Below are positions 4,853 to 50,620 of a stretch of DNA of 64,000 bases, in pieces. Each line of letters begins with the position of its first letter. Position 1 is the first letter of the stretch. This DNA comes from an uncultured Nitrospirales bacterium. GTDB taxonomy: Bacteria; Nitrospirota; Thermodesulfovibrionia; UBA6902; BMS3Bbin08. The position numbers and the translations under genes are program-made. Under the pieces are notes generated by a model. That model was given only the letters and a program-made list of their open reading frames with translations, was not told the DNA's origin and searched no databases. The DNA lies in NCBI GenBank assembly GCA_964574765.1, contig CAZNPC010000001.1, positions 28,720 through 92,719 on the forward strand. The letters are read 5' to 3'.

Positions 4853-5245
4853 CTATTGCAGAGCGACTTCACGGTGATCCACAGCGTCTTTTACAACTCC
4901 AAGAAAGTCTTCCATTCCAAATGGTTTATCCACGCATTTAAAAGCGCCGTATTCCGAAGCCTGCTTTATCGTACTGTGCGACAAATATGCCGAAATAAGT
5001 ATTACTATCGACTTAATGCCTGACGCCCTGATCTCCGCGAGCAGTTCAAGTCCGTCCAGGCCCGGCATTTTCAGATCAGTGATAATTATGTCATAACGGG
5101 ATGACTTCAGCATCTTTAACGCCTGCTCACCGCTTTCAGCAACATCAACAGACAGATCCAGCCCTTTCAGCGCTGTCTGCAGTGACCACCTTATCAGCTC
5201 TTCATCATCGATAACCAAAGCCTTAATTTCTTTCGCTGATGTCAT
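4853..5245 (-). CDS. stand-alone response-regulator receiver domain protein (CheY-like)
   Basis: Receiver motifs ALVIDDE ... IIITDLKMPGLDGLEL ... with no output domain. Start set at MTSAKEIK, preceded by a GGAGGG RBS. The ORF track begins 11 codons earlier. Confidence 0.75.
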   Translation of the reverse strand: MTSAKEIKALVIDDEELIRWSLQTALKGLDLSVDVAESGEQALKMLKSSRYDIIITDLKMPGLDGLELLAEIRASGIKSIVILISAYLSHSTIKQASEYGAFKCVDKPFGMEDFLGVVKDAVDHREVALQ

Positions 5246-5457: not shown

Positions 5458-7695
5458 TTATGGATCAGAATCTGTGACTGACCCGCCGTGACACCCTGAA
5501 ACTCCCTGCGTGGAACAGTTGTTATTACCCATGCCGCTTTTCACATAGCCTCCAGGGGTCGCGGCTTTTTTAAACGCAGTTATTTTAAGGCTGTTACCGC
5601 CGTAATTGTACGGGTCAAGGTCAGGGTTCGCAGCATTAGTCCCGTATCCGATCAGACGTGACCTTTTTGCTCCATGAGGCACAGCTATATGGCACGTAAC
5701 ACAAGTCTGGTTCTGGTGGCCACTCCCGCCGCCGCCGCCACCGCCGCCCGAGCTTACTTCATGAACATTATTGTACCAGCCGGTCTCGCTTCCACCGGGA
5801 TACAGAGGGTGACAGTTTTTACAGAACAGGCCGCCGTATGAAGTAAAACTGTCTTTATCGCTCAACTTCCAGAGCTGTGCGTCGTTTCTGAGTGGCCAGT
5901 ATTGGTTTGGGCCCTTAAGCATATATTTTGAGTTTGAGCCATGCGGTCCTCTAGGGTCAGTAGTGTCCTCACTTTCGGCGCCATGACAGTCTGAGCAATA
6001 CATTGTCTGATCACCTTCACTTTTCCATGGCGTACTCATCTGAGCATCTGTAAGCGCTTTAGGAGGATATGAACCGGGGAATGACGCTCCGGCAGTACCG
6101 GTGAGCATGTTATTCAATGTGACCCTCACAGGATGGGCTGATTTATTGCCCCTGCTGAATTCCCATGCCTGATCAGTTATGACAGCTCCTGATCCAGTAG
6201 TATAGATCGTATCGGGCGAACCTAAATTTCTGATGGCGTACGATGAATGACATTTAAAGCATATCTGGTACTCTTTATCCGCGCTGTTCATTGTTCTGTA
6301 AGAAGATAAAGCAATATCACTCCATAAAGGATCATCATTTGGATGATCAACTCCCGTAACTCCCAGAAGGGCATTTGAAACATCATTCGTCGATGCATCC
6401 GGTAACTGAGGATACCATTGATTGACTGCAGAAACATGAGTTCCCTTGAGAGTCTGATGAGGATTATGGCAGTCTACGCATTCCGCATGCTCATTGCCAA
6501 GGTCCCATCTGAGATCGTCGGCATCATACGAGACGCCAATCTGAAGAACATCAAGGTTAGTATGCCTTACAGGTGGAAGAGCATCAACAGGATGTTTGTA
6601 AAACGTCTGAAACATATCATAAATTTTCAACTCTTTTGGAACACCCACTCCGGATCCATGACACGATGTCGATGCAATACCGCTTATATAAAAACACGTG
6701 TCCTCCTCAGCCTTTCTTAATAAATAGGGAGAACCTCCCCCACTGTGAACTTTATGGCATGACGCACATCCAGCCTCAGCTACTGTATCCGGTGTACCGT
6801 CCGGAATGGGCTGTGTCTCAGCCACCGGATCGTCTATTGCCGTAGCATCAGTCTGATGAATACTTCCAACCCAGTTTGTTTTTTCATGACACCTGTCACA
6901 AATATCATTGATCGACTGTGCCAGACTGCCGCTGTTCAATACAAGGAACTTTTCGTTAGTGGTATGCGGGTCATGACATGAGGTGCACTCGACATATGAA
7001 TCGCCTGAATAATTATACAGCCTGACTTCATAGTAAGTACCGCCAATCCCCTGTACAGGAGGTTTGCTTACTCCGGATTTCAGTTCAATAGACCTGGGGC
7101 CGCCTGTATCAAAACTGATCTGTGCATTTTCATCATACTTGATCGCCACGGGATGATCATCCTGGAGATTGATCCCAAGATTGCCTGCTGACGCATCAAG
7201 TAATTCACCGGTTCCATTCTTAACTCCTGTCATACTTATTGTTGTAAAAGTACCGGTGGCGGCGTCATAAGTACTTCCACTGAGGTTATATACACTTCCT
7301 ATCGCAACTGTACCGTCATGACAGCTCAGACAGAGTCGTGACCTGTAACCAACTGCCGGGAATGTGCCCAAATCCGGTGAAACTGCATAACCAGGAGAAT
7401 CAACTCTCTGCAGATACTCACTGTCATACATCGTATAACTCGCCGTACTTAATTTATGGTTCCATAGAGGCTCAGCCGGTTGAGCATTATGAGGGGCATG
7501 GCAAAAAGAACATAATTTTGTCTCTGATGCTGCCTTGACAGTGCCGGTGCTGGTTGCTGAGAGATTATGCTTTGTAGATGCAACATCTACTTCAGTCACA
7601 TCAACTGCCCATGATAAAGACGCAATAGCGGTCATAGCAGAGATAACTATCAATTGCAAATACAGCTTATATCTTCTTATGGTCATTATTTTCAT
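5458..7695 (-). CDS. secreted multihaem c-type cytochrome (about 10 CXXCH)
   Basis: Ten CXXCH motifs (CSFCH, CLSCH, CTSCH, CDRCH, CASCH, CVDCH, CFKCH, CSDCH, CKNCH, CVTCH). N-terminal signal peptide (MKIMTIRRYKLYLQLIVISAMTAIASLSWA). Gly8 linker. Start uncertain between 7734, 7695 and 7686. Confidence 0.8.
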   Translation of the reverse strand: MKIMTIRRYKLYLQLIVISAMTAIASLSWAVDVTEVDVASTKHNLSATSTGTVKAASETKLCSFCHAPHNAQPAEPLWNHKLSTASYTMYDSEYLQRVDSPGYAVSPDLGTFPAVGYRSRLCLSCHDGTVAIGSVYNLSGSTYDAATGTFTTISMTGVKNGTGELLDASAGNLGINLQDDHPVAIKYDENAQISFDTGGPRSIELKSGVSKPPVQGIGGTYYEVRLYNYSGDSYVECTSCHDPHTTNEKFLVLNSGSLAQSINDICDRCHEKTNWVGSIHQTDATAIDDPVAETQPIPDGTPDTVAEAGCASCHKVHSGGGSPYLLRKAEEDTCFYISGIASTSCHGSGVGVPKELKIYDMFQTFYKHPVDALPPVRHTNLDVLQIGVSYDADDLRWDLGNEHAECVDCHNPHQTLKGTHVSAVNQWYPQLPDASTNDVSNALLGVTGVDHPNDDPLWSDIALSSYRTMNSADKEYQICFKCHSSYAIRNLGSPDTIYTTGSGAVITDQAWEFSRGNKSAHPVRVTLNNMLTGTAGASFPGSYPPKALTDAQMSTPWKSEGDQTMYCSDCHGAESEDTTDPRGPHGSNSKYMLKGPNQYWPLRNDAQLWKLSDKDSFTSYGGLFCKNCHPLYPGGSETGWYNNVHEVSSGGGGGGGGSGHQNQTCVTCHIAVPHGAKRSRLIGYGTNAANPDLDPYNYGGNSLKITAFKKAATPGGYVKSGMGNNNCSTQGVSGCHGGSVTDSDP

Positions 7696-7753
7696 ATTAA
7701 TCCGGTATATACTTAATATTATATCAAAAATCATGCCATAAGACCCTGAATCT

Positions 7754-8836
7754 TCATTCTTTTTCCTCTGCAGTGGGTTTTTCTTCTGTTTTTAGATATC
7801 TGAACACCTGTACTCTGCTGTTAAATACATCTGCTACATATATATTATCCCTGCTGTCAATAGCTATGCCCGCCGGCAGCAAAAAAGAGCCAACTCTTCG
7901 GCCTGACTTGCCGAATACAAGGAGCAATTGTCCTGACAGATCAAAGAGCTGGACAGCCTCGAACAAGGTATCAACAACATAGATATTTCCTTCACTGTCA
8001 ATAGCAATTCCTCTTGGATTACCCATATCACCTGTGCCGTCACCATGTTTTCCAAACTTCGCTACAAACTTTCCTTTCTTATCAAAGACCTGAATTCTAA
8101 AATTGAGAGAGTCAGCAATGTATAATTTATCGTCATCAGCTATGTATATAAAAGTAGGATGGTTCAACTGTCCGTCTTCTTCTCCTTTTTCACCGAATGA
8201 AAACTTATATGTACCATCGGTTTTATAAACATATATCCTGGCATCTACAGTATCTGTTATGTATATCTCGCTGTTTTTATTGTCGATCGCAAGCCCTGTC
8301 GGCCTTTTAAAAGAGTCCTGCCCCGGGGGAGGCTTAAAACTCCTTAAATACTTGCCCTTCCCGGAAAACACATATACCTTCTTCTGAACTGAATCAGACA
8401 CATAAATGTTACCCTGACTGTCTGAAACAGCGCTGACAGGAGAAGCAAATCTGCCCTTGTCTGTTCCTTCTATAATGCTGTATTTGCCGTTCTTAATATC
8501 AAATATATGTACTGCCAGAAGAGCCGTATCAGTAACGTATATCTTGCCCTTATCATCAATGGACACTCCAAACGGCTTTAGTATCCTGTTTTCAATATCC
8601 CTGCCGGCAATAAACTGCCATGCCTTTTTCAGGAAGCTCTTTTTTGCTCCAATATCATCCGGAGTGCTGATACTTTTGACAAACTCTATCCTTGGTTCAT
8701 ACGGCGGCTGAGGCCAGACCATTCTCTCCTGCGGTTTTTTTGACGCTTCTTTCGTAGAACTCATGCCCAACATAAAAATGGACAAAAAAACCAGTATTAC
8801 AAAGTATATCTTTTTACGATTTATCATAACAGCCAT
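7754..8836 (-). CDS. NHL-repeat beta-propeller protein, secreted
   Basis: Six repeats of the type IYVTDT / IYVADS...RIQVF (NHL repeat). N-terminal signal/TM segment. Confidence 0.75.
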   Translation of the reverse strand: MAVMINRKKIYFVILVFLSIFMLGMSSTKEASKKPQERMVWPQPPYEPRIEFVKSISTPDDIGAKKSFLKKAWQFIAGRDIENRILKPFGVSIDDKGKIYVTDTALLAVHIFDIKNGKYSIIEGTDKGRFASPVSAVSDSQGNIYVSDSVQKKVYVFSGKGKYLRSFKPPPGQDSFKRPTGLAIDNKNSEIYITDTVDARIYVYKTDGTYKFSFGEKGEEDGQLNHPTFIYIADDDKLYIADSLNFRIQVFDKKGKFVAKFGKHGDGTGDMGNPRGIAIDSEGNIYVVDTLFEAVQLFDLSGQLLLVFGKSGRRVGSFLLPAGIAIDSRDNIYVADVFNSRVQVFRYLKTEEKPTAEEKE

Positions 8837-8896
8837 ATTGTTTATATTTTAGATCAATATTTGCCAAGATACAATATTTATTGGCCTACAGTTCTA

Positions 8897-10540
8897 TTAA
8901 AATTTTCTTGTAGCCTGGACTTTCAACCTGTTTAAGGTGGTCGAAATATCCCGATTATCTTCCATACTCCAATTATATCTCACAGTCAGGAAAATCCGTC
9001 TTATTCTGTAGTTTATATCAACATTGGCTGAAATAGCTGTCGAATCTGAGGTCGGTGAAATCCTGTAAGATGCAGCCTGTGTCAGGCTAAGGTTCCTGTA
9101 CAAAACAAAATGTAAATCCTGACCAGCGCTGTATACCTCCCAGCTGGTATCCCCGCGCTCAATTGATGCCCTTGCACTCAGACCCATTTTGGCCCTCCAG
9201 CCCAGCGGCACCTCATATCTCAAACTCCCTTTACCCGTAATATGCCTTTCATCAGCAAGTGATGCTCGATTCATTACAGAATAATTTCCACTGGCTTCGG
9301 CTTGCAGTCTTTTTATGTAATTGTTTGATCCATTTATGTTCACATTATACGCGTATGTACTGTCACTATCTGATGAACTCGTATATGAAGCGCCAGCGCC
9401 TGTGTTAAGAGATGTCTTTATCCTCCGGAATGATTTGCCGAGGCTTGAAAGAACATCAGCGTTGTAATGCGAACTGTTTGTCTCTCCCTGAGAGGCTCCG
9501 TAGCCGGCTCCTGTACGCGCGGTAAATTTTATTTTTGCAGGAAGAGTAGCTGAGTAACTCAATGATCCCCTCGCCGACTCTGAAGTACTTTCTCCGTGCG
9601 AACCTCTTCTCGATGATAAAAAAATCCCTCCATTAGACAGGAGATTTCTGCTAATCCTGTATTCAGCAGACGTATTATTATTCACTGTTATATTTGATCC
9701 AGCAGTATCATTAGCATAATTAAATGTAGTACCGCTTTTGCCGTAGAATTTGGAAGACGGCTGGTAGTGAAGCACAGATGAAGCTCCCATATTCGCATTT
9801 TCACTTTCTGTGTCATAACCCGCATTTGCGCTTAATTCCAGACTCGTAACCCTTGACAATCTGTGATTTGAGTGGGCGCGTAAATTTAATGTATGGGAAC
9901 CAGTTTCACTGTCAGTCAATCTGTCAAGGGTGTTCCTATAATCATAGCTCAAGCTCGCATCTGCATTTTTCCATTTCTTGCTCAAGTCCATATGCAGTGC
10001 TCGTCTCCTATCATCCAGTTTACTCCTCCCTGTTCTTTCACGATCATCCTGTGTCACCCAGTATTTGAGGGTCGGATATTTTCTCAGTTTCACAGAGCCC
10101 CTTAGCGCAAAACCCGTTGTTGTCTGCTCCAGCATTGGCGTTCCTGTATTCAGAGTACTGAAACCGTTTTGTGTGTTTCTGTACGCGGAAATACTAAATG
10201 GCATCGCGCTTGCCCTAATAAAATCGAGAAGAATGTTGTAATCAAAAGATTCAGATTCAAAAGAAGAACCGTCAAACTCCCTGTCCTCCTGCGCATACAC
10301 GCCGGTTAACGAATATGAGAGCAAATTTCGATGTAACAAATACCTTGAGTAGTTTAGTCTGTATGTTTGTTGCAGTGACGATTGTGAACTAATCTGAGAA
10401 TTTGATTCTCTCTCACCATTCTGATAGGTTAATTGTATACTACCGCTAATATATCTTCCCATGGCGTTAGTGACAAAATACGGAAATAGCATTAACATAA
10501 CAACCATAATTCCAATATATAATGTTGAATTCTGTTTCAC
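8897..10540 (-). CDS. putative outer-membrane beta-barrel protein
   Basis: Signal peptide, Ser/Thr/Asn/Tyr-rich amphipathic alternation throughout, C-terminal ...ATRKF with terminal Phe typical of OM barrels. No enzymatic motifs. Confidence 0.5.
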   Translation of the reverse strand: MKQNSTLYIGIMVVMLMLFPYFVTNAMGRYISGSIQLTYQNGERESNSQISSQSSLQQTYRLNYSRYLLHRNLLSYSLTGVYAQEDREFDGSSFESESFDYNILLDFIRASAMPFSISAYRNTQNGFSTLNTGTPMLEQTTTGFALRGSVKLRKYPTLKYWVTQDDRERTGRSKLDDRRRALHMDLSKKWKNADASLSYDYRNTLDRLTDSETGSHTLNLRAHSNHRLSRVTSLELSANAGYDTESENANMGASSVLHYQPSSKFYGKSGTTFNYANDTAGSNITVNNNTSAEYRISRNLLSNGGIFLSSRRGSHGESTSESARGSLSYSATLPAKIKFTARTGAGYGASQGETNSSHYNADVLSSLGKSFRRIKTSLNTGAGASYTSSSDSDSTYAYNVNINGSNNYIKRLQAEASGNYSVMNRASLADERHITGKGSLRYEVPLGWRAKMGLSARASIERGDTSWEVYSAGQDLHFVLYRNLSLTQAASYRISPTSDSTAISANVDINYRIRRIFLTVRYNWSMEDNRDISTTLNRLKVQATRKF

Positions 10541-10778: not shown

Positions 10779-13199
10779 CTAATTTGTTGTTACTGATTGC
10801 AGTTTAAATATCTCTTTTTTTGCTTTCCTTGAAAAATAACCTTTCGGCTCGATCCTCAGATATTCCTGAAAATGGTATATGGCATTGCCCCTGTCATTCC
10901 ATTTCAAAAAAACAAGGGCAATGCCATAGTGCGCATTGGCGTAATTAGGATCAAGATCAAGCGCCTGTTTCTGATACATATGTGATCTATCAAACAGGCC
11001 CAGATCGTAATAAATATATCCTATATTATTGTACGCAGCCGGATTAAACCGGTTGACCTCGATCGATCTCTTAAGCTCTTCAAGCGCAAGATTGTGTTTT
11101 TTTGCAATGTATGCGGCAAGCCCCTTCTGAAAATGCTCCTCGCCCATATTATTTTTTTTTGCCTGTTCATACATTAACAATGCTTCATTATATTTTATCT
11201 GATCATCGTTTTCCTGATATAAAGACATAAGAATAGGATATATGGAAACAATACGATTATTCATCTTCAGCGCTTTTTCAAGATATCTAATACACGTTTT
11301 ATTATCGTTCATTTCCATATAAGCAAGCCCAATATTATGTAGAATGACAGCATCGTTTTTTAATTTAAAGGCCTTTTTGTAATATTTTATGGACTTTTCA
11401 TACTCCCCGGTCTTACTGTAAGCAAAAGCAAGCCCCTGATACGCGTTATATATGTTGCTCATGATGGGATAGTCCTCTACTTTTGACAGAGCTTCAATGG
11501 CTTCTTTATACATCCCCTTATCGTTATAGATGAATCCGAGAAACGTGTATGCCATTGACGACCCTGTTTCATTAATGTTTCTTTTCAATTCACTGATAAG
11601 ACCTTCCAGATAATTCTTATCATGCAGTCTGGACCTTACTGCAGATGCGCCGTTTGCCGGTACAACATAGCGGTATTCATCCTGTTCAATTATATGTTTA
11701 AACTCGTCACCTCTTTTAAGATACACCATTGACAGATCATCCCAGTACACAAGCGCCCAGTCTTTTGATGAAAGGCCAAAATCTATATCTATGTCAACTT
11801 CCCTGAAGAATTTCTCAAGAAGCACATAGCTTAGGAGTGCCACATTAAATCCGTACTTTTCATGGAGTTCCTCCAGAAGTTTCGGCCGAGTCCTTGCCAC
11901 ATCAAGAGATTCAAGCAGTTCCCTTGATATATTTCCCCTGCCATCCACAAAGGCTGACCTTTTTGGAAAATCCCTCCACGTTATATAACCTCCCCAGTGA
12001 AAGGCATTGAATATTCTGCCGTAAATATTTCTTTTATCAAGATACTGAAGCGCCAGTTCAGGAAGATATTCATTATTGTATCCAAAACCGAACTTCTTTC
12101 CCGGCGTCGTAAAAGGCTTGATCTCCAGGCAGGCGAGTGTCGTAATGATAATAAGAACTGTAATAAGACTTGCATTAAGAATTCGCCACGCTTTGCCGTT
12201 GATCTTTATCTGAGCCGCAATATTCCTGACTATTACGGGTGCGCCGACAATGCCAAGCAGAAACATAAATCTTAATCCTGAAAAAGCCATATAAATGAAT
12301 GGCGCCACCAAAAACACATGAATTATCGAGATCCTTTTTATGTTTACAAAAAATGAAAGAATAATGGCAGCTGTCAGGAAATAGACCATCTTAAAATCTT
12401 TCCAGAGAGGTTTTTGAAGCTCTGTGATTTCATCAGCATACCAGCTCGTCCCTGACATCATCTCCGTTGGAGCGGAAAACGAATAAGAAGTATATGGATT
12501 CAAAAGGGTAGCTACCAGTACTGCCATGAACACCAGCATAATGACCGCCAATTGCCTGTTTGTCGGTGTAAACGGAAGTTTTAATTTATATCTCCTGTTC
12601 AGTATCCGATGCAAAATGCCGCCGATTATAAAGGCGCTAAAAGGCACTATGACCAGAACTGTGCTCGGATGCATGTTGACCCATATTATCTGGGTAAGGG
12701 GCAATATATATATATACTTCTTGCCTTCATGAACAAAAGCATTAAGCGAATAAATTAAAAACGCCAGAAAGAACATCAGTGCTATATCCGGCCTTTCCAC
12801 AATTCTGTGCCTGATCATAAACACAATGAATATTAAGACCGCTATTGAAGCGATATGCTCCCTGTCCGGAATAAGCGAATCCTTCAGAAGTATATAAATA
12901 GCCCCTGTTACAATTGCGGCTTTAAGCAGTATAACGCCATACAGGCTGAATGCCGCGTAAGCCAGGTAGAAAACAACATCAAACAGCCATTCAGGGTCGG
13001 CAAAGCCCCTGTTCAGGCTTGGATAGGAAAAAGGCTCATTATCCGGGAAGCCCCTGTTGTTTACGATCTCCCTGCCAAGGCTGAGATGAGTCCCGGCGTC
13101 ATAAGATTCAATCTTTATTATGCCAAGGATAAAAACACACGCCAGAAAAACCGTAATTAAGATGCGGGTTGTCCTCTCCGTCTTCGCGTAACTGGTCAT
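10779..13199 (-). CDS. polytopic membrane protein with C-terminal TPR repeats (GT-C-like or DUF2723-like putative glycosyltransferase)
   Basis: About 13 predicted TM helices in the N-terminal 500 aa, then a TPR array (YNAYQGLAFAYSKTGEYEKSIKYYKKAFKL... ALDLDPNYANAHYGIALVF). Confidence 0.5.
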   Translation of the reverse strand: MTSYAKTERTTRILITVFLACVFILGIIKIESYDAGTHLSLGREIVNNRGFPDNEPFSYPSLNRGFADPEWLFDVVFYLAYAAFSLYGVILLKAAIVTGAIYILLKDSLIPDREHIASIAVLIFIVFMIRHRIVERPDIALMFFLAFLIYSLNAFVHEGKKYIYILPLTQIIWVNMHPSTVLVIVPFSAFIIGGILHRILNRRYKLKLPFTPTNRQLAVIMLVFMAVLVATLLNPYTSYSFSAPTEMMSGTSWYADEITELQKPLWKDFKMVYFLTAAIILSFFVNIKRISIIHVFLVAPFIYMAFSGLRFMFLLGIVGAPVIVRNIAAQIKINGKAWRILNASLITVLIIITTLACLEIKPFTTPGKKFGFGYNNEYLPELALQYLDKRNIYGRIFNAFHWGGYITWRDFPKRSAFVDGRGNISRELLESLDVARTRPKLLEELHEKYGFNVALLSYVLLEKFFREVDIDIDFGLSSKDWALVYWDDLSMVYLKRGDEFKHIIEQDEYRYVVPANGASAVRSRLHDKNYLEGLISELKRNINETGSSMAYTFLGFIYNDKGMYKEAIEALSKVEDYPIMSNIYNAYQGLAFAYSKTGEYEKSIKYYKKAFKLKNDAVILHNIGLAYMEMNDNKTCIRYLEKALKMNNRIVSIYPILMSLYQENDDQIKYNEALLMYEQAKKNNMGEEHFQKGLAAYIAKKHNLALEELKRSIEVNRFNPAAYNNIGYIYYDLGLFDRSHMYQKQALDLDPNYANAHYGIALVFLKWNDRGNAIYHFQEYLRIEPKGYFSRKAKKEIFKLQSVTTN

Positions 13200-14502: not shown

Positions 14503-15948
14503 TTAATATTTCCTCAAAATTGATAGAGACGCCTTGAACTTGTTTAAAAAGTCAGTTAAACCATGTAATTTTTTTAGTCTTTTTAGAATATATGATGGCC
14601 TGAAATAAAACCTGAGATATGCTTTTCTTATGATCTTTTCCATGTTTTCTTTAGTAAGATGAGGGAATGATATAAGAGATTGTTTCATAGGATCTATGGG
14701 AACGTACTCATCAGCAATCATCCATTTGTTTTTCTTTGCGATTTCATGAAAGTTTGTATGGGGGAATGGTGTGCAAATTGAAAAAAGGGCGTAATCCACA
14801 TCGAGTTTTATAGTCTCTGAAATAGTGTATTCAATGGTCTCTTTTGTTTCAAGCGGACAACTGCCTATTAAAATATTAAGTTCAGGTTCAATTCCATATC
14901 TCTTAAGCATGTTGACTGCAGTATAAATCGATTCTACTTTTAGGTCCTTTCTAATATAATCAAGTATCTCCTGATTAAATGATTCAATTCCAATGTCGAT
15001 ATATTTACAGCCGGCTTCTGCCATTGCCTTTATCAATTCATTGTTTTCTAAATGATCTGCCCTTGCAAGGCAAGACCATTCCATATTGAGGTCTCGTATG
15101 CCATTACATATTTCAATAATTCGGCTGCGATTCCACACAAATTGGTCATCTAAAAAAGAAAAAGATTTAAAACCATGCTTGTGCAGCATTTTTATTTCTT
15201 CAATAATATTATCGGCCGACCTTAATCTTACCGGGGGTTTTTCCATTGCAGAACTACACCTTTTGAATTCAATCTCACGAGCAAAATCAAGAGAGTTTGG
15301 GACGCAATAATAACAATTGTAGGAACATCCCCGTGATGAGATCATAGTAGTAAAAGGCAGTGCACATAATTTAGGATTGTGATAGTTTGCCGGTTCAAGA
15401 AGTGTCCTATCCGGGAAAGGAAGTCGGTCGAGATTATCAATTAATTTCCGTCTCACAGTATCAACTTTATCGCCGTTCCTGAGACAGCTAATGCCCTCAA
15501 CATTTACAGGTTCTGCTTTTGATTTAATAACATCCACCAACTCTTTAATGCTATCTTCAGGTTCCCCTCTTATTACAAAGCTATTACTATCAATAAATTC
15601 AGAAGGGTTAACTGTGGGTTCAGTGCCCATGAAAATGAATTTCGCATCACTATTTTTCTCACTTATAATATCTCTTGCGCTAAGGTCTGTTTTTTTCGAG
15701 AGAAAAACTGTATAAAAAACGTATATGTCTGAGTCATCACTTGCTGCAAATTGATAAAATTCATTTTTTCTTACCTTTTCAATCGGTAAATCTCTTACGA
15801 TGACATCATAGCCAGCCTCTTTCAGAACTGTTGCCGGATAGAGAACAAAAATATTAGGTTGGGTGTAGATGCCGTAGTTGCAGCCAAAAATCCTTTCAGC
15901 CGCTGGCTTTCCATCAAGAGGAGGAGGTGTAAGAAAGGTTATCTTCAT
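14503..15948 (-). CDS. B12-binding-domain radical SAM protein (class B)
   Basis: Rossmann-like N-terminal domain, then CX3CX2C (GCSYNCYYC) radical-SAM cluster motif. 481 aa. Confidence 0.75.
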   Translation of the reverse strand: MKITFLTPPPLDGKPAAERIFGCNYGIYTQPNIFVLYPATVLKEAGYDVIVRDLPIEKVRKNEFYQFAASDDSDIYVFYTVFLSKKTDLSARDIISEKNSDAKFIFMGTEPTVNPSEFIDSNSFVIRGEPEDSIKELVDVIKSKAEPVNVEGISCLRNGDKVDTVRRKLIDNLDRLPFPDRTLLEPANYHNPKLCALPFTTMISSRGCSYNCYYCVPNSLDFAREIEFKRCSSAMEKPPVRLRSADNIIEEIKMLHKHGFKSFSFLDDQFVWNRSRIIEICNGIRDLNMEWSCLARADHLENNELIKAMAEAGCKYIDIGIESFNQEILDYIRKDLKVESIYTAVNMLKRYGIEPELNILIGSCPLETKETIEYTISETIKLDVDYALFSICTPFPHTNFHEIAKKNKWMIADEYVPIDPMKQSLISFPHLTKENMEKIIRKAYLRFYFRPSYILKRLKKLHGLTDFLNKFKASLSILRKY

Positions 15949-16958
15949 TACTTTATCTCGCTGTTTTTAATTGGATATATTAATTCTCTCATAAAACCCG
16001 TTGACCATGCAAAAAATATTATTGATATCACAGCAGGCACCCGCAAAGATACCTTAAAAGAACCAGTTTTAAATAGTGAGACCAAAAAATATATAAAAAG
16101 AAATAGTGCGTATATAAGGAATAAAGACGCAAACAACGGGCGAGAGAAGAAAAGTACAACAATGCCCATTGGCGGAGTTATCCCCACAAGTATATGAAAC
16201 ACATTGATCATCCTTTTGTCCCGTTTGCCTACCTGAAGCCTGCCTATGGCATACCTGTACATCTGCTTCCACAGCCTTACATGGGTCGGCCGCCTGTAAT
16301 GCCAGACAAAAACATCAGGCGTATATAAAAGGCTGTAGCCATTATCAATAATTCTTTGATTCATTTCAGTGTCGTCACAGGTGAGCAGGCCCTCGTCAAC
16401 AGGCATCACCTTTTCCAGTGCCTCCCTTTTATATATAGCGTTGCAGCCCGGTATGCTTCTTACTTTTTTTATTTCTTTTAGATTTCTTGCATGTACTGAC
16501 CCGGCCGCGAAGATCGCCTGACCGAAGACAAATCCCACTGCTTTGCCAAACAGGGTCTCATTTTCAGGGGTTAGATTTGGGCCCCCTACCCCGGCAATCG
16601 TTTCATCATCAAAATATTTAATAGAATTCTTCAACCAGTTTACGTCTGCAACGCAGTCCGCATCAGTAAACGCGATTATATCTCCTCTTGCCTGCTTAAA
16701 GGCAATATTTCTGCCGGGCGATACCGTACCTGAAGGATTTGCAACGACTCTTGCCCCAAGCTTTTCTGCTATTTTGACGGTATTATCAGTGGACTGGCCG
16801 TCAGCAACAATGATTTCATAAGAATTTCGCGGGTATTCCAGGGCATTTAAGGCATTAAGGCATTGTTCAATAAGGCGCTCCTCGTTCTTTGCGGGAATAA
16901 TAATAGAAACAAATGGGACCGGACTTTTTGTCTTGAACTCGTCAATTTGATTATCCAT
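15948..16958 (-). CDS. GT2 family glycosyltransferase with C-terminal TM helices
   Basis: VSIIIPAKNEERLIEQCL ... IIVADGQSTDNT ... FTDADC. Confidence 0.8.
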   Translation of the reverse strand: MDNQIDEFKTKSPVPFVSIIIPAKNEERLIEQCLNALNALEYPRNSYEIIVADGQSTDNTVKIAEKLGARVVANPSGTVSPGRNIAFKQARGDIIAFTDADCVADVNWLKNSIKYFDDETIAGVGGPNLTPENETLFGKAVGFVFGQAIFAAGSVHARNLKEIKKVRSIPGCNAIYKREALEKVMPVDEGLLTCDDTEMNQRIIDNGYSLLYTPDVFVWHYRRPTHVRLWKQMYRYAIGRLQVGKRDKRMINVFHILVGITPPMGIVVLFFSRPLFASLFLIYALFLFIYFLVSLFKTGSFKVSLRVPAVISIIFFAWSTGFMRELIYPIKNSEIK

Positions 16959-17005
16959 TATTAATATTTCAATTGCATTATTCGATAATTATATGGAATC
17001 ACGGT

Positions 17006-17923
17006 TTATTTGTTTTTAAAGTATTCAACAGTATTGATCAAGCCGTCCTCAAGAGACATATCGGGCTGCCAGTTTAAAACTTGACTGGCTTTTTTATGAT
17101 CAATTACGCTTCTCATCTGTTCTCCGGTCTTTTGCGGCCCGTGAACTTCATTTGCCTTACTCCCTGTTATTTTTACCAACATCTTATATATGGTATTAAC
17201 ATCAGTCTCAAGAGCTGTGCCTATATTGAAAATGCCTCCTTCGCCAGTCATGATCGCCATGCGGTTTGCCTTAACTACATCTCCAACATATACAAAATCT
17301 CTTGTTTGTCTGCCGTCTCCATTTATAACCGGCTGTTCATTGTGAAGGAGTTTCTGTATGAAAATAGCGACAACACCTGCTTCACCATAAGGGTCCTGCC
17401 TTGGTCCATATACATTGCCATATCTGAGGACCACATAATCAAGGCCGTAGTTAGACCTGTAATAGAACAAATAGTTCTCTACTGCTAATTTTGCCACTCC
17501 GTAAGGACTTATGGGTCTAAGCGGATGACTTTCATCAGCAGGGAAAATATCCTGCTCGCCGTAGATCGCGCCGCCTGTAGAAGCGAATATCATTTTTTTT
17601 GAATCGTATTTAATGCAATTCTGCAGGATGTTTATAGTACCTATAATATTGGTTCTCGCATCGAAAGCAGGGTCTGCCACAGAGCGCCGCACATCAACCT
17701 GTGCCGCGTGATGATTTACAAGATCAGGTTTGACCTCCTGAAAGATCTTTTCCAGATCAGGAGATCCGATATCAGCTTCAAAAAACCTTGCTTCCGGATT
17801 TATGTTTTCCCTGCGGCCTGAGGACAGATTATCAATAACAGCCACATCTTCACCCTGTTTAATGTACGCATCTACTATGTGAGAGGCTATGAACCCGGCG
17901 CCGCCGGTTACTAGTATTTTCAT
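17006..17923 (-). CDS. NAD-dependent nucleotide-sugar epimerase/dehydratase (GalE/WbpP-like)
   Basis: [20 protein letters not shown] Rossmann motif. YxxxK in YGVAKLAVE. Confidence 0.8.
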   Translation of the reverse strand: MKILVTGGAGFIASHIVDAYIKQGEDVAVIDNLSSGRRENINPEARFFEADIGSPDLEKIFQEVKPDLVNHHAAQVDVRRSVADPAFDARTNIIGTINILQNCIKYDSKKMIFASTGGAIYGEQDIFPADESHPLRPISPYGVAKLAVENYLFYYRSNYGLDYVVLRYGNVYGPRQDPYGEAGVVAIFIQKLLHNEQPVINGDGRQTRDFVYVGDVVKANRMAIMTGEGGIFNIGTALETDVNTIYKMLVKITGSKANEVHGPQKTGEQMRSVIDHKKASQVLNWQPDMSLEDGLINTVEYFKNK

Positions 17924-17944
17924 GACTGAATTATTTAAACACCC

Positions 17945-18162
17945 TCTTAACCACTGAAAACACTAAAACCACAGAATTTGTAAAATTATTTTTAAAAATT
18001 TTCATTTTTTGCAAAGCCTTTTCAGCGTATTCAGTGACCTCAGTGCCTGCCCGCCAGTCTGTTTGGTGGGGTTCATATTTTCATAGTTAATCGCCAATTG
18101 TCCGTAGTTAGTAATTAGTTTTTACCTCTTTCACTATTTTTTTTCAGTGTACTCTGTGTTTT
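17945..18162. repeat. MITE-like intergenic element bounded by 15-bp perfect terminal inverted repeats (aaccactgaaaacac ... gtgttttcagtggtt)
   Basis: Inverted repeats at 17945-17959 and 18148-18162. The interior shares the block ttcagtg(a/c)ctcagtgcctgccc...gccagtctgt with 59838-59895. Confidence 0.55.
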
Positions 18163-18179
18163 CAGTGGTTACTATGAGC

Positions 18180-19106
18180 TCATAGCTTTTCAAAATACTC
18201 AATCGTTTTCTTCAGCCCTTCTTCCAGTTTTACTTTTGGCTCCCACTTAAGCAGTTCCCGCGCAAGGGAGATGTCAGGCTGGCGCTGGGTTGGGTCATCT
18301 TCGGGAAGGGGTTTGTTTATTATCTTTGATTTAGAGCCGGTCATTTCAATGACCTTGTTCGCCATTTCCAGGATACTGTTCTCAACAGGATTGCCCAGGT
18401 TAACAGGGCCTGTAATATCGTCCGTGGTGTTCATGAGCCGCACCATCCCGTCTATCAGGTCATCGACATAGCAAAAGCTCCTTGTCTGGCTTCCTTCACC
18501 GAAAACTGTTATATCCTCACCTTTTAACGCCTGAACAATAAAGTTGCTGATAACCCTGCCGTCGTCAGGAAGCATCTTTGGTCCGTAAGTATTGAATATT
18601 CGTGCTACTTTTATTTTCAGTTTATGCTGGCGGTGATAGTCAAAAAAAAGGGTCTCTGCGCACCTCTTCCCCTCATCGTAACAGGACCGCGGCCCCACAG
18701 GGTTCACGTTTCCCCAGTAGCTTTCAGTCTGTGGATGAACTGTCGGATCTCCGTAGACCTCGGACGTGGACGCCTGAAATATCTTTGCCTTTATCCGTTT
18801 GGCAAGCCCGAGCATGTTAATAGAGCCGTGAACAGATGTCTTAGTTGTCTGCACAGGGTCAAATTGGTAATGTATGGGAGATGCAGGACAGGCAAGGTTA
18901 TAAATTTCATCGACCTCAACATACAGCGGAAAACATATATCATGCCTCATTACCTCAAATAAAGGGTTCGGGAAATGCTTTGCTATATTTGAACGCCGCC
19001 CCGTATAGAAATTATCAACACACAGAACATCATGGCCGTCATTGAGTAATCTCTCACACAAATGACTTCCTAAAAAACCTGCTCCGCCAGTAACTAATAT
19101 CCTCAT
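18180..19106 (-). CDS. uxs: UDP-glucuronate decarboxylase (UDP-xylose synthase)
   Basis: [41 protein letters not shown], highly characteristic of UXS/ArnA-decarboxylase type SDRs. Confidence 0.8.
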
Positions 19107-19261
19107 TTTCGCTCCTCAATATAGTTCATAGCCTTCGACCCGAGCTCAGGCCGAGGGTTTGATAGTTCATAGCTCATAGCTCATAGTAAAAACACTTAAA
19201 ATAGCCTTTAGTTCATAGTTGATATTATAGTTTATAGGTTAAACTTATAATAGCATATTCT
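19107..19261. repeat. intergenic repeat family A (AGCTCATAG / CTATGAGCT palindromic ends), copy between uxs and GT2
   Basis: The stretch gatagctcatagtaaaaaca(c/t)ttaaaatagcc(t/c)ttagttca(t/c)agtt(g/a)atattatagt is about 92% identical to 58606-58668. Related copies lie at 4056-4177 and 18164-18177 (perfect 14-bp palindrome CTATGAGCTCATAG). Confidence 0.6.
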
Positions 19262-20311
19262 CTAGCCGTCAGGGCTGCAATTTCCGGACTTTTCAGTCTT
19301 TGAAAGCCGCACAAACTCTTTGAACGCTAAAGTGAATGAAACTATGACTGATTGTCTAAATAAATAGCTGTCTTTGACCTTTCTCCTTGCCTGTATTTCC
19401 CTTCTCTTTCTCATCAACTCAGGCAGGTATCTGAGAAAAGAAAAATACGCCTTGATCATCAAAAAGGCCGATCTGAACTCCAGCTTTAAAAAAAAACCGA
19501 GCATTTTTACAAAATGATAAGGCAGTGACACAAACAAAGCGATAAACACGTTATGGAGCTGATAGTTCTTGACTATATTAAAAAGGGCGTTCCTTGTGCC
19601 GTAAAACACCCTTACCGGCACATCACGTTCTGTGCCTGAGGTCCCGCCGAACTTATGGTAGATCACAGACTCAGGCACATATTCCACTTTTTTGCCAAAA
19701 AGCCAGTATCTCCAGCAGAGGTCTGTATCCTCAAAATACATGAAATGTTCCTCATCAAAACCGCCTATTCCCAGGAATTCCTCTTTTCTGACCATCATGG
19801 CAGCCGCGCACACGCACCCCCTGAACCTTCTGACATTATATTTTTCAGAATCCTTATCCATAAAACCTATGTCAAAGCCACTGCCTGTGATAATGATGCT
19901 GGCGCCTGCTGAGTTCACTGTGTCAGGCCTGTCAAGAAGCAGTATCTTGCTTCCAACCGCGCCGACATTTTTGTCTTTCATTAGCGCGTCAACAAGCGGG
20001 TTCAGCCAGCCCGGGGTCACAACAGTGTCATTGTTCAGGAACATTACGTACTCGCCTGCGGCATTCCCGGCCCCGATATTATTCGCCTTTGCAAAGCCCG
20101 TGTTTTCATCAAGTGCAATGACCCTTACCCATGGAAAGTTTTCCCTTGTGAACTCAACACTTCCGTCTGATGAGGCATTATCTATCATAATGGTCTCGAT
20201 CTTATCAAGGGGGTAATTGCTCTGTTTCAGTGAGTCAAAACATTTTCTCAGGTACTCGATCCCGTTATAATTAACTATAACTATCGAAACGCCTGGAATT
20301 AATTCAGTCAT
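19262..20311 (-). CDS. GT2 family glycosyltransferase
   Basis: VSIVIVNYNGIEYLRKCFDSL ... IMIDNASSDGS ... FLNNDT. Confidence 0.8.
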   Translation of the reverse strand: MTELIPGVSIVIVNYNGIEYLRKCFDSLKQSNYPLDKIETIMIDNASSDGSVEFTRENFPWVRVIALDENTGFAKANNIGAGNAAGEYVMFLNNDTVVTPGWLNPLVDALMKDKNVGAVGSKILLLDRPDTVNSAGASIIITGSGFDIGFMDKDSEKYNVRRFRGCVCAAAMMVRKEEFLGIGGFDEEHFMYFEDTDLCWRYWLFGKKVEYVPESVIYHKFGGTSGTERDVPVRVFYGTRNALFNIVKNYQLHNVFIALFVSLPYHFVKMLGFFLKLEFRSAFLMIKAYFSFLRYLPELMRKRREIQARRKVKDSYLFRQSVIVSFTLAFKEFVRLSKTEKSGNCSPDG

Positions 20312-20376
20312 ACATTCAATCCTGTCATGATCTTTCTATATTTCATGTCCCGCACAATCGTAAAAAACAGATTTAT

Positions 20377-21765
20377 CTACTTTTTTATAAGGCCGAAAAA
20401 TATAAGTGGTTTTTTGACCGCCTCCTTGATGTGCGGATGGCGCAGGAAAAAAGGCATCATCTTTGTTCCTAATCCAAGCAACAAGCTGTTCCTCATAACA
20501 GGGCTGTCCATGCCCACTGATTCCATCAGGGCGCGGTTGAGAAATTTATAGTCCACACCTTTTATTTTGGCCTCGGTCGGATTTCTTCGGTAACTGTCAT
20601 GACTTTTGATCAGGGACAGATTATGTTCCATACAATATTTGAACAGATCGCTGCCCGGATGGGGCGTATAAAATGCCGGGCTGTAGTGTTCCGGTTTAAT
20701 GGTCTGTATCATCTTTATGGTATCCATCACCTCTTCTCTGGTTTCAGTCGGGATTCCCATCATATAATTGGCCCATATTTCAACGCCGTACTTTCTGCAG
20801 ATTTCCGCACTTTTGAAATTATGCTCCACTTTCGTTCCTTTACGAAGAAAATTTAATACCCTCTGATTTCCGCTTTCAAATCCGATAAACATCAACTTAA
20901 GACCGGCATCTGACATAAGCGCTATCATGTCTTCATTGCGACAGATTATATCAGCCCTGCTCTGACAGGCAAACGGCTGATTAAATCCCTTTTCCCTGTA
21001 CAGCCTGCAAAATTCGATTACCCAAGGCCTGTCTTCGGTAATGCAGTCATCATGGATCATCATGCTTTTGAAGTTATACTTTTCGTTTAGCATACACAGT
21101 TCCTCGATGACATTTGAAGGACTGCGGCGCCTTACCTTTTTCCCAAATATTAATCTCTCAGCCGGCTGGCAATAATTACAATTAAATTTACATCCCCTGC
21201 CCGCGATCAACGTCACAAACGGCCTCTCAAAGCCTTTAACAGGGAGAGGATATTCCAGATCTTTGAACAGATCTCTGTCTATAAAAGAAAGTTTGTCAAG
21301 GTCTTCAGGAAACACACCTTTAATTACCCGCGGCGGTTTGTTGCCTTTTTCAGTATCCCTTAATAGTTCAACAAATGATATCTCTCCTTCTCCTGTTATA
21401 ATATGATCAACCGCTGTTTCTTTTATCAGCTCTTCCGGTACTATGGTCGGGTGGGGCCCTCCGGCAACCGTTACAGTCTGCGGAGAAATTTTTTTTATTA
21501 TATTTATGGCCTTCATGGCCGGATTATAATCCACGCTCATCATGGTCACGCCGACCACATCCGGCTTTTTTTCAGAGATGATCTTTCTGAAGTGTTTCCA
21601 ACTCTTTAGACAACGCAGGTCGATCAGCTCGGTTTTATATCCCTGATCCCGTGCGTAAGCGCTAATACTGCATAACCCGTGGCTTATCCAGGACTCCTCC
21701 ATCCCGTTTCCATAACTGTTAAACCCTATGCCCGATATACCGGGGAACAATAAAATCGTTTTCAT
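20377..21765 (-). CDS. B12-binding-domain radical SAM protein (class B), second copy
   Basis: N-terminal Rossmann/B12-like domain, then CX3CX2C (GCKFNCNYC). 462 aa. Paralogous in architecture to 14503-15948. Confidence 0.75.
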   Translation of the reverse strand: MKTILLFPGISGIGFNSYGNGMEESWISHGLCSISAYARDQGYKTELIDLRCLKSWKHFRKIISEKKPDVVGVTMMSVDYNPAMKAINIIKKISPQTVTVAGGPHPTIVPEELIKETAVDHIITGEGEISFVELLRDTEKGNKPPRVIKGVFPEDLDKLSFIDRDLFKDLEYPLPVKGFERPFVTLIAGRGCKFNCNYCQPAERLIFGKKVRRRSPSNVIEELCMLNEKYNFKSMMIHDDCITEDRPWVIEFCRLYREKGFNQPFACQSRADIICRNEDMIALMSDAGLKLMFIGFESGNQRVLNFLRKGTKVEHNFKSAEICRKYGVEIWANYMMGIPTETREEVMDTIKMIQTIKPEHYSPAFYTPHPGSDLFKYCMEHNLSLIKSHDSYRRNPTEAKIKGVDYKFLNRALMESVGMDSPVMRNSLLLGLGTKMMPFFLRHPHIKEAVKKPLIFFGLIKK

Positions 21766-22829
21766 TTCCCGCCTCTTCCTGAAAATCTCCCTAAAATTTT
21801 CTCCACAACAGCGCGTCTAATGTTACTGAAAAAAAAGCGCTCCATGTATTCAGCAGATACTTTTTTTCTTTTCTGTATTTGAGTTCGTTTTCTTAGCATT
21901 AGCGGCACATACCTTAATGTCATAAACGGAACTTTCAATACAAACAGGTTCCCTTCAATCACCTTGGTGAAATAAAAACCTGTCTCTATAATCAGTATCC
22001 ATATGATATTTTTCAATGAACTCAGAAAGATGGCGTTTTTTATAATAGCAAGGCTCCTGTTGCGATAACCAATAAGAATATACTCTTTTTTCATTGTAGA
22101 ATTATTATGTCTGGTAGCTCCTCTGTTATGATAAGCAATCGCCGTCGGCGTATAAAGGGCCTTCCATCCGTACAATTGCGCGCGCCAGCATAGATCTACA
22201 TCTTCGAAATATATATAAAAGTCCTCATCAAAATATTCATCAAACAGTTTGATGTCTTCAAGCATATTTCTGCTCAGGAGAGGGGCAGCGCCTGAAGCGC
22301 CAAAAATATAATCTGCCTCATTATGATCACCGCTGTCAGTTTCATTGTTGTCTCTGTCTGAAGCAAACATCCCAAGCATTGTTATTCCAGTTGAATCTAT
22401 TATGTTTGTTCTTTTCTCATCTTTCAGAACATAAAGTTTTCCTGATACAATGCCAATCCCCGTTGCAGATTCAATAGCTTTAACCATCTCTTGAACAAAA
22501 TTAGGGGCAAGCACAATGTCAAAGTTAAGTGGAAGAATCAATTCACCTGATGATATTCTTATAGCCTGGTTATGCGCCTTGCTGAATCCTTCATTCCCGG
22601 CATTGGCTATAAGCCTTATTTCCGGATAATTATCAGAAAGAAATCTGACTGAGTCATCTGATGAATTATTGTCAATGATATTGATTTCAATATTTTCATA
22701 GGTCTGAGACTTTATAGATTCAATACAATTCCTTAAATAATTCAGGCCATTCCAGTTAACTATATTTATTGAAACAAGCTTCAATGTTTTCCCCCTAATA
22801 TCAGCTTTATTGTCAACTATCTGTTCCAT
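21762..22829 (-). CDS. GT2 family glycosyltransferase
   Basis: VSINIVNWNGLNYLRNCIESIKSQTY ... IIDNNSSDDS. Overlaps the rSAM stop by 4 nt. Confidence 0.75.
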   Translation of the reverse strand: MEQIVDNKADIRGKTLKLVSINIVNWNGLNYLRNCIESIKSQTYENIEINIIDNNSSDDSVRFLSDNYPEIRLIANAGNEGFSKAHNQAIRISSGELILPLNFDIVLAPNFVQEMVKAIESATGIGIVSGKLYVLKDEKRTNIIDSTGITMLGMFASDRDNNETDSGDHNEADYIFGASGAAPLLSRNMLEDIKLFDEYFDEDFYIYFEDVDLCWRAQLYGWKALYTPTAIAYHNRGATRHNNSTMKKEYILIGYRNRSLAIIKNAIFLSSLKNIIWILIIETGFYFTKVIEGNLFVLKVPFMTLRYVPLMLRKRTQIQKRKKVSAEYMERFFFSNIRRAVVEKILGRFSGRGGK

Positions 22830-24264: not shown

Positions 24265-24294
24265 TTACTCACAATATAATTGAATTCAAAAGCA

Positions 24295-25335: not shown

Positions 25336-25363
25336 ATCATATTCTTTAATTCATTTCTCCCAT

Positions 25364-27130: not shown

Positions 27131-27134
27131 TATC

Positions 27135-28253: not shown

Positions 28254-28279
28254 CTTTTATTCTTCCCTGAGTTAAAAAG

Positions 28280-42425: not shown

Positions 42426-42650
42426 GACTTTATATGTAAATCTTTTATTACAGGATTAATGATGTGTGCCAATTTTCTCATATTATATATATCTGATATT
42501 GCAATTTTCCTGTATTCGATTGTGAACTGGAAGAATGATATAAATCATACAGGCTTGCGAAGAAATATTAAATAGTTGTCTCCAATTGCAATACCAATGG
42601 TCTTTTTAATAAAGTAATACAGTGGTTCCTAGTCATCATAACCGCTTTTT

Positions 42651-43688: not shown

Positions 43689-43869
43689 AACAATTATCGC
43701 TTATAATTCATCAAAGCAATATTATACATGGCACATTCCACCTACTGCGATCATTCATTAGTGTTCTTTAAGAGAGTCTGCATTATACCGTCTCTCTTCT
43801 TACTGTCTATGCCTTTTATAATATCAATAATATATGGAGTAATAGCTATGTTTTCTTCATCATTTCAAT

Positions 43870-50615: not shown

Positions 50616-50620
50616 ATCGT

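Follow-up and report, generated by a model that had tools for sequence, protein, structure and literature searches.

A barrel, beta-propeller and undecahaem cytochrome gene triad from an uncultured Nitrospirales bacterium, the probable outer-membrane core of an OmcE/Uet-type extracellular cytochrome system

In a 64-kb stretch of DNA from an uncultured Nitrospirales bacterium (hereafter the window), three consecutive genes of the minus strand encode a multihaem cytochrome (5458..7695), an NHL beta-propeller (7754..8836) and an outer-membrane beta-barrel (8897..10540). Our analysis suggests that this triad is probably the outer-membrane core of an extracellular multihaem-cytochrome system of the kind represented by the OmcE and Uet gene clusters. 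The three open reading frames (ORFs) lie exactly where an original prediction, made from the letters of the sequence, had placed them. They form only half of the system, the other half being a homologue of the filament subunit OmcE and a lipoprotein NHL propeller encoded at 60158-62152. The window holds a Nitrospirota-type representative of a kind of system that has been described before, though not characterised experimentally, and not a new kind. What we add is a corrected haem count, a 28-strand model of the barrel, the second half of the system 50 kb away, and evidence that the clusters named Uet and OmcE represent one and the same machinery. The window locus also occurs in the sequence data SRR6439359.

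The cytochrome ORF extends to position 7734 (758 aa). The alignment of homologues and the signal peptide lead us to take M14, at position 7695, as the probable start, which gives a protein of 745 aa with the signal peptide MKIMTIRRYKLYLQLIVISAMTAIASLSWA (ending in ASLSWA) followed by VDV. The ORF contains exactly ten CXXCH motifs, as had been noted originally, but the total of ten haems deduced from them has to be revised. Indeed, a C347-X10-C358-H359 motif (6658-6696, minus strand; numbering of the 758-aa ORF) is invariant in a 58-sequence alignment of the family. When the alignment is widened to 27 sequences, the Tenderia, Geobacteraceae and other relatives show a canonical CXXCH in its place, and the cytochrome therefore has 11 haem sites. 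Conservation of all ten CXXCH histidine columns and of the CX10CH site extends to 27 of the 27 aligned relatives, including the protein of a 'Ca. Tenderia' locus (L076; numbers of this form designate the related loci of our survey). Further relatives have CX3CH, CX4CH, CX7CH or CX10-11CH at this same haem site 6, the inter-cysteine loop of which is, judging from the alignments, expanded stepwise across the family.

A twelfth haem site of variable spacing may exist at the C-terminus. The motif C740-X7-C748-H749 (5488-5517, minus strand) aligns with CX3CH, CX5CH or CXCH in most relatives that have a comparable C-terminus, CX3CH (CYLTCH-type) being found in the Desulfobacterota and Bacteroidota homologues. 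Some relatives have no CH at this position, and the Uet-type proteobacterial proteins have Cys...Cys without His. The run of eight glycines first described as a linker is real (SSGGGGGGGGSG); it sits in a variable Gly-rich loop 5' of the last CXXCH and does not look like a domain linker.

The N-terminal part of the cytochrome provides the most direct connection with cytochrome filaments. Residues 46-284 match the OmcE filament subunit (PDB 7tfs, E=9e-21) along a TKH motif, four CXXCH, PH, DHP and xH, with all eight haem-ligand positions aligned. The companion cytochrome of a Geobacteraceae locus (L050) and the protein at the UetJ position in Tenderia match the same structure, with E=1.5e-27 and E=1.8e-21 respectively. 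The family is therefore made of an OmcE module plus seven or eight more haems. In the Pfam search, the cytochrome matched Paired_CXXCH_1 (E=2e-22) and, in its C-terminal part, Mtrc-MtrF_II-IV_dom (35.3 bits, cut-off 30). Identity as an MtrA/DmsE-type periplasmic decahaem cytochrome was rejected (TIGR03508, 39.5 bits against a cut-off of 192). At least two tandem or nearby copies of the big cytochrome are found in some genomes (L013, L021, L049, L057 and L085), for example of 887 and 821 aa in L049 and of 642, 793 and 891 aa in L085. Haem-rich neighbours also occur in related clusters: an 857-aa protein with 21 CXXCH in Desulforhopalus sp. IMCC35007 (L083 1-2571) and a 482-aa cytochrome with 17 CXXCH in the cluster of a Verrucomicrobiota metagenome-assembled genome (L053 1056-2504).

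The barrel is a 547-aa protein with a GTG start, the signal peptide MKQNSTLYIGIMVVMLMLFPYFVTNA followed by MG, and a C-terminus in ATRKF, in agreement with the putative beta-barrel with C-terminal Phe of the original prediction. The GTG was preferred as start because the N-terminus that it gives aligns with the MK-hydrophobic signal peptide of the closest homologue, that of Nitrospirae bacterium BMS3Abin10 (L002). The public gene call (P0001, 533 aa) starts 14 codons 3' of this GTG and loses most of the signal peptide. No match to the barrel was found in Pfam or NCBIfam, nor by sequence in the PDB, and a word-indexed homologue search, with the single sequence or with a profile, returned only the barrel itself and one weak match. 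An exhaustive phmmer search recovered 33 representative relatives at 50% clustering. The homology extends over the full length of the barrels of Nitrospirota, Persephonella and Sulfurimonas (31%, 22% and 22% identity; E 6e-79, 1e-14 and 7e-16, respectively). A hidden Markov model (HMM) of the family further matches the barrels of the Uet-type Tenderia locus (L076) and of the Geobacteraceae (L050) and Desulfuromonas (L084) loci. The C-terminal Phe is present in 34 of the 53 barrel-family ORFs collected from the related loci with the iterated HMM.

An AlphaFold2 model built on 27 of the 33 representatives (mean predicted local distance difference test score, pLDDT, 91) shows 28 antiparallel strands with short turns, without plug or extra domain. 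About 20 strands had been proposed as fitting a cytochrome conduit, and 8-12 as speaking against it; by this measure the model favours a conduit. When the model was compared with the PDB using Foldseek, the top match was MtrB (6r2q, E=2.4e-10, template modelling score 0.45), and the pilus ushers PapC and FimD were also among the top matches. By standard barrel geometry, 28 strands would give a C-alpha diameter of about 5 nm; about 5 nm is also the value reported for the 28-strand model of UetC in the Tenderiales preprint (bioRxiv 10.1101/2022.05.06.490989).

The protein encoded between the two, NHL1 (360 aa), has a signal peptide without lipobox. It matches Pfam NHL (E=1.5e-32) and the six-bladed propeller family DUF5128 (E=4e-25), and six hYVxD blade motifs can be recognised in its sequence, so that its description as a six-bladed NHL propeller holds. 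The second propeller of the window, NHL2 (61091..62152, minus strand; Pfam NHL E=1e-25), is 39% identical to NHL1 and has the lipobox LTAC. NHL2-type propellers usually carry a lipobox, and no lipobox cysteine was found in NHL1 or in its Nitrospirota, Persephonella and Sulfurimonas orthologues. We rejected a ScyF-type enzyme as an identity for NHL1 (NCBIfam, 195 bits against a cut-off of 350). A WPxPPxxPRI-type motif is located just past the signal peptide in both propellers (VWPQPPYEPRIEF; YWPLPPEEPRIKW), and a loose version of it is present in 46 of the 101 NHL ORFs of the window and related loci.

When the whole window was scanned for ORFs with CXXCH motifs, only two were obtained, the second being a 240-aa ORF at 60158-60880. 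Starting from an ATG placed after a good ribosome-binding site (GGGAGGTG), it encodes a 237-aa tetrahaem cytochrome of the OmcE type (60158..60871, minus strand), a candidate filament subunit with a signal peptide, four CXXCH, exactly eight His and eight Cys. It matches the G. sulfurreducens OmcE filament (PDB 7tfs) over its full length and up to the last residue of that structure (E=1.7e-32), and also PDB 9yuq (E=1.4e-19), which is presumably the OmcE of D. soudanensis. Furthermore, it shares 33% identity with the OmcE-like N-terminal part of the big cytochrome. The NHL2 gene is located immediately upstream, and an NHL gene is paired with an OmcE-like gene in many related loci. From these sequence relationships we take the OmcE-like gene and NHL2 to be the other half of the triad's system, 50 kb off beyond a glycan locus. 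OmcE-like proteins with five CXXCH, instead of the four of the window copy, are encoded in Nitrospirota relatives (L002 17283-18038; L019 13112-13897), and they fit the 5-haem OmcE-like family, possibly a leaky nanowire, that has been proposed (bioRxiv 10.1101/2025.10.22.684050).

The association of these genes is conserved across phyla. We detected 2975 homologues of the cytochrome, typically of about 700 aa, in Nitrospirota, Persephonella, Sulfurimonas, Smithellaceae and others. A species-level scan, with one genome per species, gave more than 586 relatives, from which 79 loci of more than 12 phyla were taken. ORFs were called in these loci and searched with the window proteins and with the barrel HMM, which was then iterated. 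In 51 of the 63 loci with enough upstream sequence, the gene immediately 5' of the cytochrome gene encodes an NHL protein; the propeller, originally seen as an unusual third partner, is the rule. Among the 52 loci with at least 8 kb upstream, 36 have the barrel family, 37 an OmcE-like tetrahaem cytochrome and 24 a peptidyl-prolyl isomerase (PPIase), while barrel, OmcE-like and NHL genes occur together in 32. The grouping of the trio is beyond chance because every gene has homologues and the order is conserved across phyla.

The closest relative is Nitrospirae bacterium BMS3Abin10 (L002/L003; cytochrome 57% identical), where the order is GT4, GT2, DUF2304, a membrane protein with tetratricopeptide (TPR) repeats, SurA-like PPIase, a 549-aa barrel, NHL and cytochrome. 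A HEPN/NT pair, ResB, CcsA, a radical S-adenosylmethionine (SAM) enzyme, a 251-aa cytochrome with five CXXCH, a response-regulator receiver, purN and purM follow. Compared with this arrangement, the window has no SurA-like PPIase at 10541-10778, and at 5246-5457 it has no HEPN/NT pair, ResB, CcsA, radical-SAM or 5-haem OmcE-like gene; tblastn detected no remnants. In Persephonella and Sulfurimonas the order is tetrahaem cytochrome, NHL, other genes, PPIase, barrel, NHL and cytochrome. A ResB-CcsA fusion gene is found near the module in both, downstream in Sulfurimonas and on the opposite strand in Persephonella.

In many relatives the module has such a haem lyase beside it, either as a fusion of about 1060 aa (L004 13905-17102, L006 12686-15901, L008, L010 and L011) or as separate ResB and CcsA (L002 13046-15227), and these relatives include those that have the CX10-11CH site. 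The neighbouring ResB-CcsA could be a dedicated lyase for the unusual haem motif, much as Wolinella has specialised CcsA isoenzymes.

The comparison with a published cluster allows names to be put on the three genes. The Uet cluster, uetABCDEFGHIJ-ccsAB-nrfG, has been described in 'Ca. Tenderia electrophaga' and in some Gallionella (bioRxiv 10.1101/2022.05.06.490989; PMC10734462). It encodes a tetrahaem cytochrome (UetA), a PPIase (UetB), a barrel with 28 predicted strands (UetC), trihaem c7 cytochromes (UetD/E/G), a cupredoxin (UetF), NHL proteins (UetH/I) and an undecahaem cytochrome (UetJ), followed by ccsAB and nrfG (bioRxiv 10.1101/2022.05.06.490989). On bioinformatic and expression-based grounds, it was proposed to be a porin-cytochrome conduit for electron uptake, with UetJ and UetA as extracellular cytochromes on UetC (bioRxiv 10.1101/2022.05.06.490989). 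In our survey, the Ca. Tenderia sp. locus L076 has the published uet order: OmcE-like, PPIase, barrel, further genes, NHL, NHL, a cytochrome with 11 CXXCH, CcsA and TPR. The ORFs at the UetC (608 aa), UetH/I and UetJ positions were matched by the barrel HMM, the NHL proteins and the cytochrome of the window, and the ORF at the UetA position matches 7tfs (E=3.8e-25). The window barrel, NHL1 and cytochrome are therefore counterparts of UetC, UetI and UetJ, and NHL2 and the OmcE-like protein occupy the UetH and UetA positions. The porin-cytochrome conduit first suggested for the triad is thus supported in part, by the large barrel and by a conserved unit homologous to UetC/UetI/UetJ and to the OmcE-cluster genes.

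How could such a system work? The 28-strand barrel would open a passage of about 4-5 nm through the outer membrane. The undecahaem cytochrome, in or on this pore, would carry electrons across the membrane and link periplasmic carriers to the outside, the direction being either export to minerals or partners, or uptake. Its OmcE-like N-terminal module would offer the interface of a filament subunit. Since the interface is the same, a polymer of the OmcE-like protein of 237 aa could dock on the undecahaem protein or be nucleated by it, and the latter would then form the base of a cytochrome nanowire on the side of the cell. The two NHL propellers would act as periplasmic or outer-membrane-associated scaffolds or chaperones, and the co-oriented glycan genes may serve to glycosylate the cytochrome after its export, which is what has been proposed for the OmcE of Geobacter.

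These elements can be joined in a single, more ambitious scheme, which we put forward tentatively and consider doubtful as a whole. In this scheme, the undecahaem cytochrome would be the missing base of OmcE-type nanowires, its OmcE module copolymerising with the first subunit through the His-haem interface and its seven or eight further haems running through the barrel to the periplasm, with the NHL propellers holding the assembly. The Uet and OmcE clusters would be one ancient machine spread over more than 12 phyla, and the embedded glycan locus a dedicated nanowire glycosylation locus.

Several observations weigh against assigning these roles to the triad. Complex formation, topology and filament anchoring are inferred, and no member of the barrel/NHL/undecahaem set has been characterised biochemically. 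The AlphaFold2 model of the cytochrome is poor (pLDDT 61), and a Foldseek search of the PDB with this model gave no fold matches. The protein has a bulk of about 65 residues per haem, compared with about 33 in MtrA, and its complete threading through the barrel is therefore uncertain. The barrel family was undetected in 16 of the 52 loci even after iteration of the HMM. The PPIase and CcsBA/ResB haem-lyase genes of many relatives were not found in the 64-kb window by tblastn; the missing PPIase, CcsAB and other Uet-type genes may be elsewhere in the genome. Finally, homologues of the TPR membrane protein or of the GT2 enzyme of the glycan genes were found within 10 kb of the module in only two of the 79 species loci (L017 and L073) besides the closest relative, a count that is a lower bound as three glycan-gene queries were used. 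The link with the glycan locus could therefore be coincidental.

The main rival explanation, unlikely in our opinion, is that the barrel serves only as an usher-like export and anchoring pore for the secretion and polymerisation of OmcE-type subunits, with the NHL proteins as chaperones and the undecahaem cytochrome as a periplasmic or extracellular partner outside the barrel, in which case the barrel itself would hold no electron conduit. The preprint on OmcE clusters itself calls the barrel a putative 'secretion or anchor' (bioRxiv 10.1101/2025.10.22.684050), and a porin-like secretion route with OscE/F/G has been proposed for OmcS nanowires, as summarised elsewhere (bioRxiv 10.1101/2025.10.22.684050; PMC13194489). 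The presence of PapC and FimD among the top Foldseek matches is in line with this proposal, and the SurA-like PPIase that accompanies the barrel in 24 of the 52 loci would fit folding or export. However, the window barrel has neither the plug nor the periplasmic domains of ushers, and the gene most tightly linked to the NHL and barrel genes is that of the undecahaem cytochrome. The MtrC-domain-like C-terminal part of this cytochrome, together with its OmcE module, would suit an electron-transfer link at the membrane. The roles of secretion pore and conduit are not mutually exclusive.

An improbable alternative is a porin-cytochrome conduit free of filaments, in which the undecahaem cytochrome sitting on the barrel would meet its substrates directly and the OmcE-like protein would be an independent monomer. 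This is the reading of the original prediction and of the Uet model, where UetJ and UetA are both extracellular cytochromes on UetC (bioRxiv 10.1101/2022.05.06.490989). Filaments have been demonstrated only for the OmcE of two Desulfuromonadia, and the OmcE-like gene of the window stands 50 kb from the triad. Against it, the OmcE homologue keeps the four CXXCH and exactly eight His that form the pattern of a filament subunit. Its gene is paired with its own NHL lipoprotein gene and co-oriented with the rest, and an OmcE-like gene co-occurs with the module in 37 of the 52 loci.

Under the original prediction's second proposal, the barrel would export the adjacent ABC-transporter-dependent glycan across the outer membrane, and its place beside the cytochrome would then be incidental. 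Almost nothing is left to commend this reading: the barrel is two genes away from GT2/DUF2304 and co-oriented with the 45-kb Wzm/Wzt-type locus, and no OPX/Wza-type exporter was seen among the window genes scanned, but the barrel family keeps company with the cytochrome and NHL genes, including in loci where our three queries detected no glycan-gene homologue, and has no sequence or specific fold match to the Wza/OPX, PgaA, AlgE, BcsC or PelB export families.

The probable core of an OmcE/Uet-type system is thus placed in the window at one edge of the glycan locus. From 13.2 to 59.8 kb, all genes are on the minus strand, and this 47-kb locus parts the OmcE-like and NHL2 genes from those of the TPR protein, barrel, NHL1 and undecahaem cytochrome. 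Between the barrel and the glycan genes, 10779..13199 (minus strand) encodes a polytopic membrane protein of 806 aa with about ten hydrophobic segments in residues 1-360 and C-terminal TPR repeats. TPR families alone matched it in Pfam and NCBIfam, and its N-terminal 540 aa had no match in Pfam, NCBIfam or the PDB. It is followed on the same strand by a small DUF2304 membrane protein (13227-13589; Pfam E=5e-24) and by a GT2 enzyme resembling polyprenyl-phosphate sugar synthases (13673-14404; Glycos_transf_2, E=4e-23). In NCBIfam, this enzyme was most similar to the models of PpgS, AglJ and dolichyl-phosphate hexose transferase, but reached none of the cut-offs. In L002/L003, the TPR protein is found at the same position beside the barrel, and the DUF2304/GT2 order is kept. 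The three look like a putative periplasmic glycosylation trio, in which the TPR protein might, speculatively, be a protein glycosyltransferase of GT-C/TMTC-like kind.

The co-oriented biosynthesis and export block proper (14503..59779, minus strand, about 45 kb) was characterised by Pfam scans. Besides the enzyme just mentioned, it encodes at least seven GT2 proteins, a GT1-like enzyme, epimerases, dehydratases, Rml-type genes, two DegT aminotransferases, WbqC, several methyltransferases and an asparagine-synthase-like amidotransferase. There are two sulfotransferases (30745-31686; 42651-43688), two Wzt ATPases of ABC transporters (31730-32950, with an ABC-2 permease at 33580-34461; 49335-50615), and four radical-SAM enzymes, three with a B12-binding domain and one SPASM. 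A NusG-like protein (54663-55154) and a winged helix-turn-helix regulator (55238-55864) complete the block. This gene content suggests that the glycan is sulfated, heavily modified and under its own antitermination control. Following the pattern of Geobacter, these intervening genes may glycosylate the extracellular cytochrome.

On the other side, the undecahaem end of the system adjoins purN/purM. The CheY-like receiver announced downstream of the cytochrome is a single-domain response-regulator receiver (4853..5245, ORF to 5278, minus strand; Pfam Response_reg E=9e-28), which also stands next to purN/purM in L002/L003. Receiver, purN, purM, RNase III and FabF are flanking genes syntenic with the closest relative. 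A scan for promoters and terminators in 4700-13700 gave no more sites than shuffled sequence.

According to reviews and to the OmcE preprint, the export, outer-membrane anchoring and electron supply of cytochrome nanowires is an open question (bioRxiv 10.1101/2025.10.22.684050). A complete OmcE module opens the companion cytochrome in Nitrospirota, Geobacteraceae and Tenderia, which makes this protein a candidate for the filament base, and the glycan genes inside the window cluster fit the proposal that the wires are glycosylated. If these indications hold, extracellular electron transfer in many uncultured lineages could become predictable from one conserved gene set.

Among the known systems, MtrCAB also combines a multihaem cytochrome with a large outer-membrane barrel that lacks a plug, the two being encoded side by side. 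The best structural match of the window barrel is MtrB, and a region of the window cytochrome matches the Pfam MtrC/MtrF domain II/IV above the cut-off. However, the window barrel has no sequence relation to MtrB in Pfam, NCBIfam or the PDB, the similarity being at the level of the fold only. It has 28 strands instead of 26, and the window has NHL propellers and an OmcE module, which Mtr has not. With no match to MtrB/PioB-family barrels and no MtrA/DmsE-family decahaem cytochrome, membership in the Mtr family was rejected. The osc operon of G. sulfurreducens is alike in concept, with a filament-subunit gene accompanied by paralogous cytochromes and accessory proteins; according to a summary of Shen et al. 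2025, the roles proposed are folding for OscH, secretion for OscE/F/G and morphology for OscD (PMC13194489). It differs in its subunit, as OmcS and OmcE have no sequence similarity.

In the OmcE clusters, OmcE and a large beta-barrel are always accompanied by two multihaem cytochromes and two lipoproteins of the beta-propeller type. The clusters are located close to pur and resB/ccsB genes, and 15-70 glycosylation genes often come after them; these comprise GT2/4/39, sugar modification enzymes, methyltransferases, exporters, TPR proteins and regulators. Homologues of OmcE are present in Nitrospirota, Aquificota and Campylobacterota, and glycosylation has been given as the source of extra densities on Geobacter OmcE (bioRxiv 10.1101/2025.10.22.684050 for all these points). 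The window shares with them an OmcE homologue of full length, bearing four CXXCH and eight His, as well as two beta-propellers, a large barrel from the same family and a companion cytochrome with an OmcE-like N-terminus, as in L050. The barrel family and the companion cytochrome of the window both recur in the Geobacteraceae (L050) and Desulfuromonas (L084) loci. The adjacent pur genes and the block of GT2, sugar-modification, methyltransferase, exporter, TPR and regulator genes are also as in Geobacter and Geomonas. The differences are that the glycan genes of the window lie between the OmcE/NHL pair and the trio and not after the whole cluster, that only one of the two propellers (NHL2) has a lipobox, and that there is one further multihaem cytochrome and not two. 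The companion cytochrome has about 745 aa and a CX10CH site, compared with about 557 aa and 11 CXXCH in L050. As to polymerisation into a filament with inter-subunit His-haem ligation, the ligand residues are conserved in the window proteins.

With the Uet cluster of Tenderia, the window has in common the barrel family (28 predicted strands in both), an NHL gene immediately preceding that of a homologous cytochrome in which 11 haem sites align, an OmcE homologue at the UetA position and two NHL-repeat propellers (UetH/UetI), which in the window are 50 kb apart. It differs by having no PPIase (UetB) and no adjacent CcsAB (tblastn), and no trihaem c7 (UetD/E/G), only two ORFs of the 64 kb bearing CXXCH. 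No cupredoxin (UetF) was noted, although no search was aimed at cupredoxins. Furthermore, haem site 6 is CX10CH and not CXXCH, the cytochrome is of about 745 aa instead of about 900, and the UetA/UetH equivalents are split from the rest by the 47-kb glycan locus. The hosts differ too, a Nitrospirota in the case of the window, to which the best matches and the synteny also point, and a gammaproteobacterium in that of Tenderia. In the searchable literature we found no paper naming both UetJ and OmcE, and as far as we have checked, the two clusters have not been equated before. The homologous barrels, propellers, tetrahaem subunits and companion cytochromes compared here provide evidence for a single machinery behind the names Uet and OmcE.

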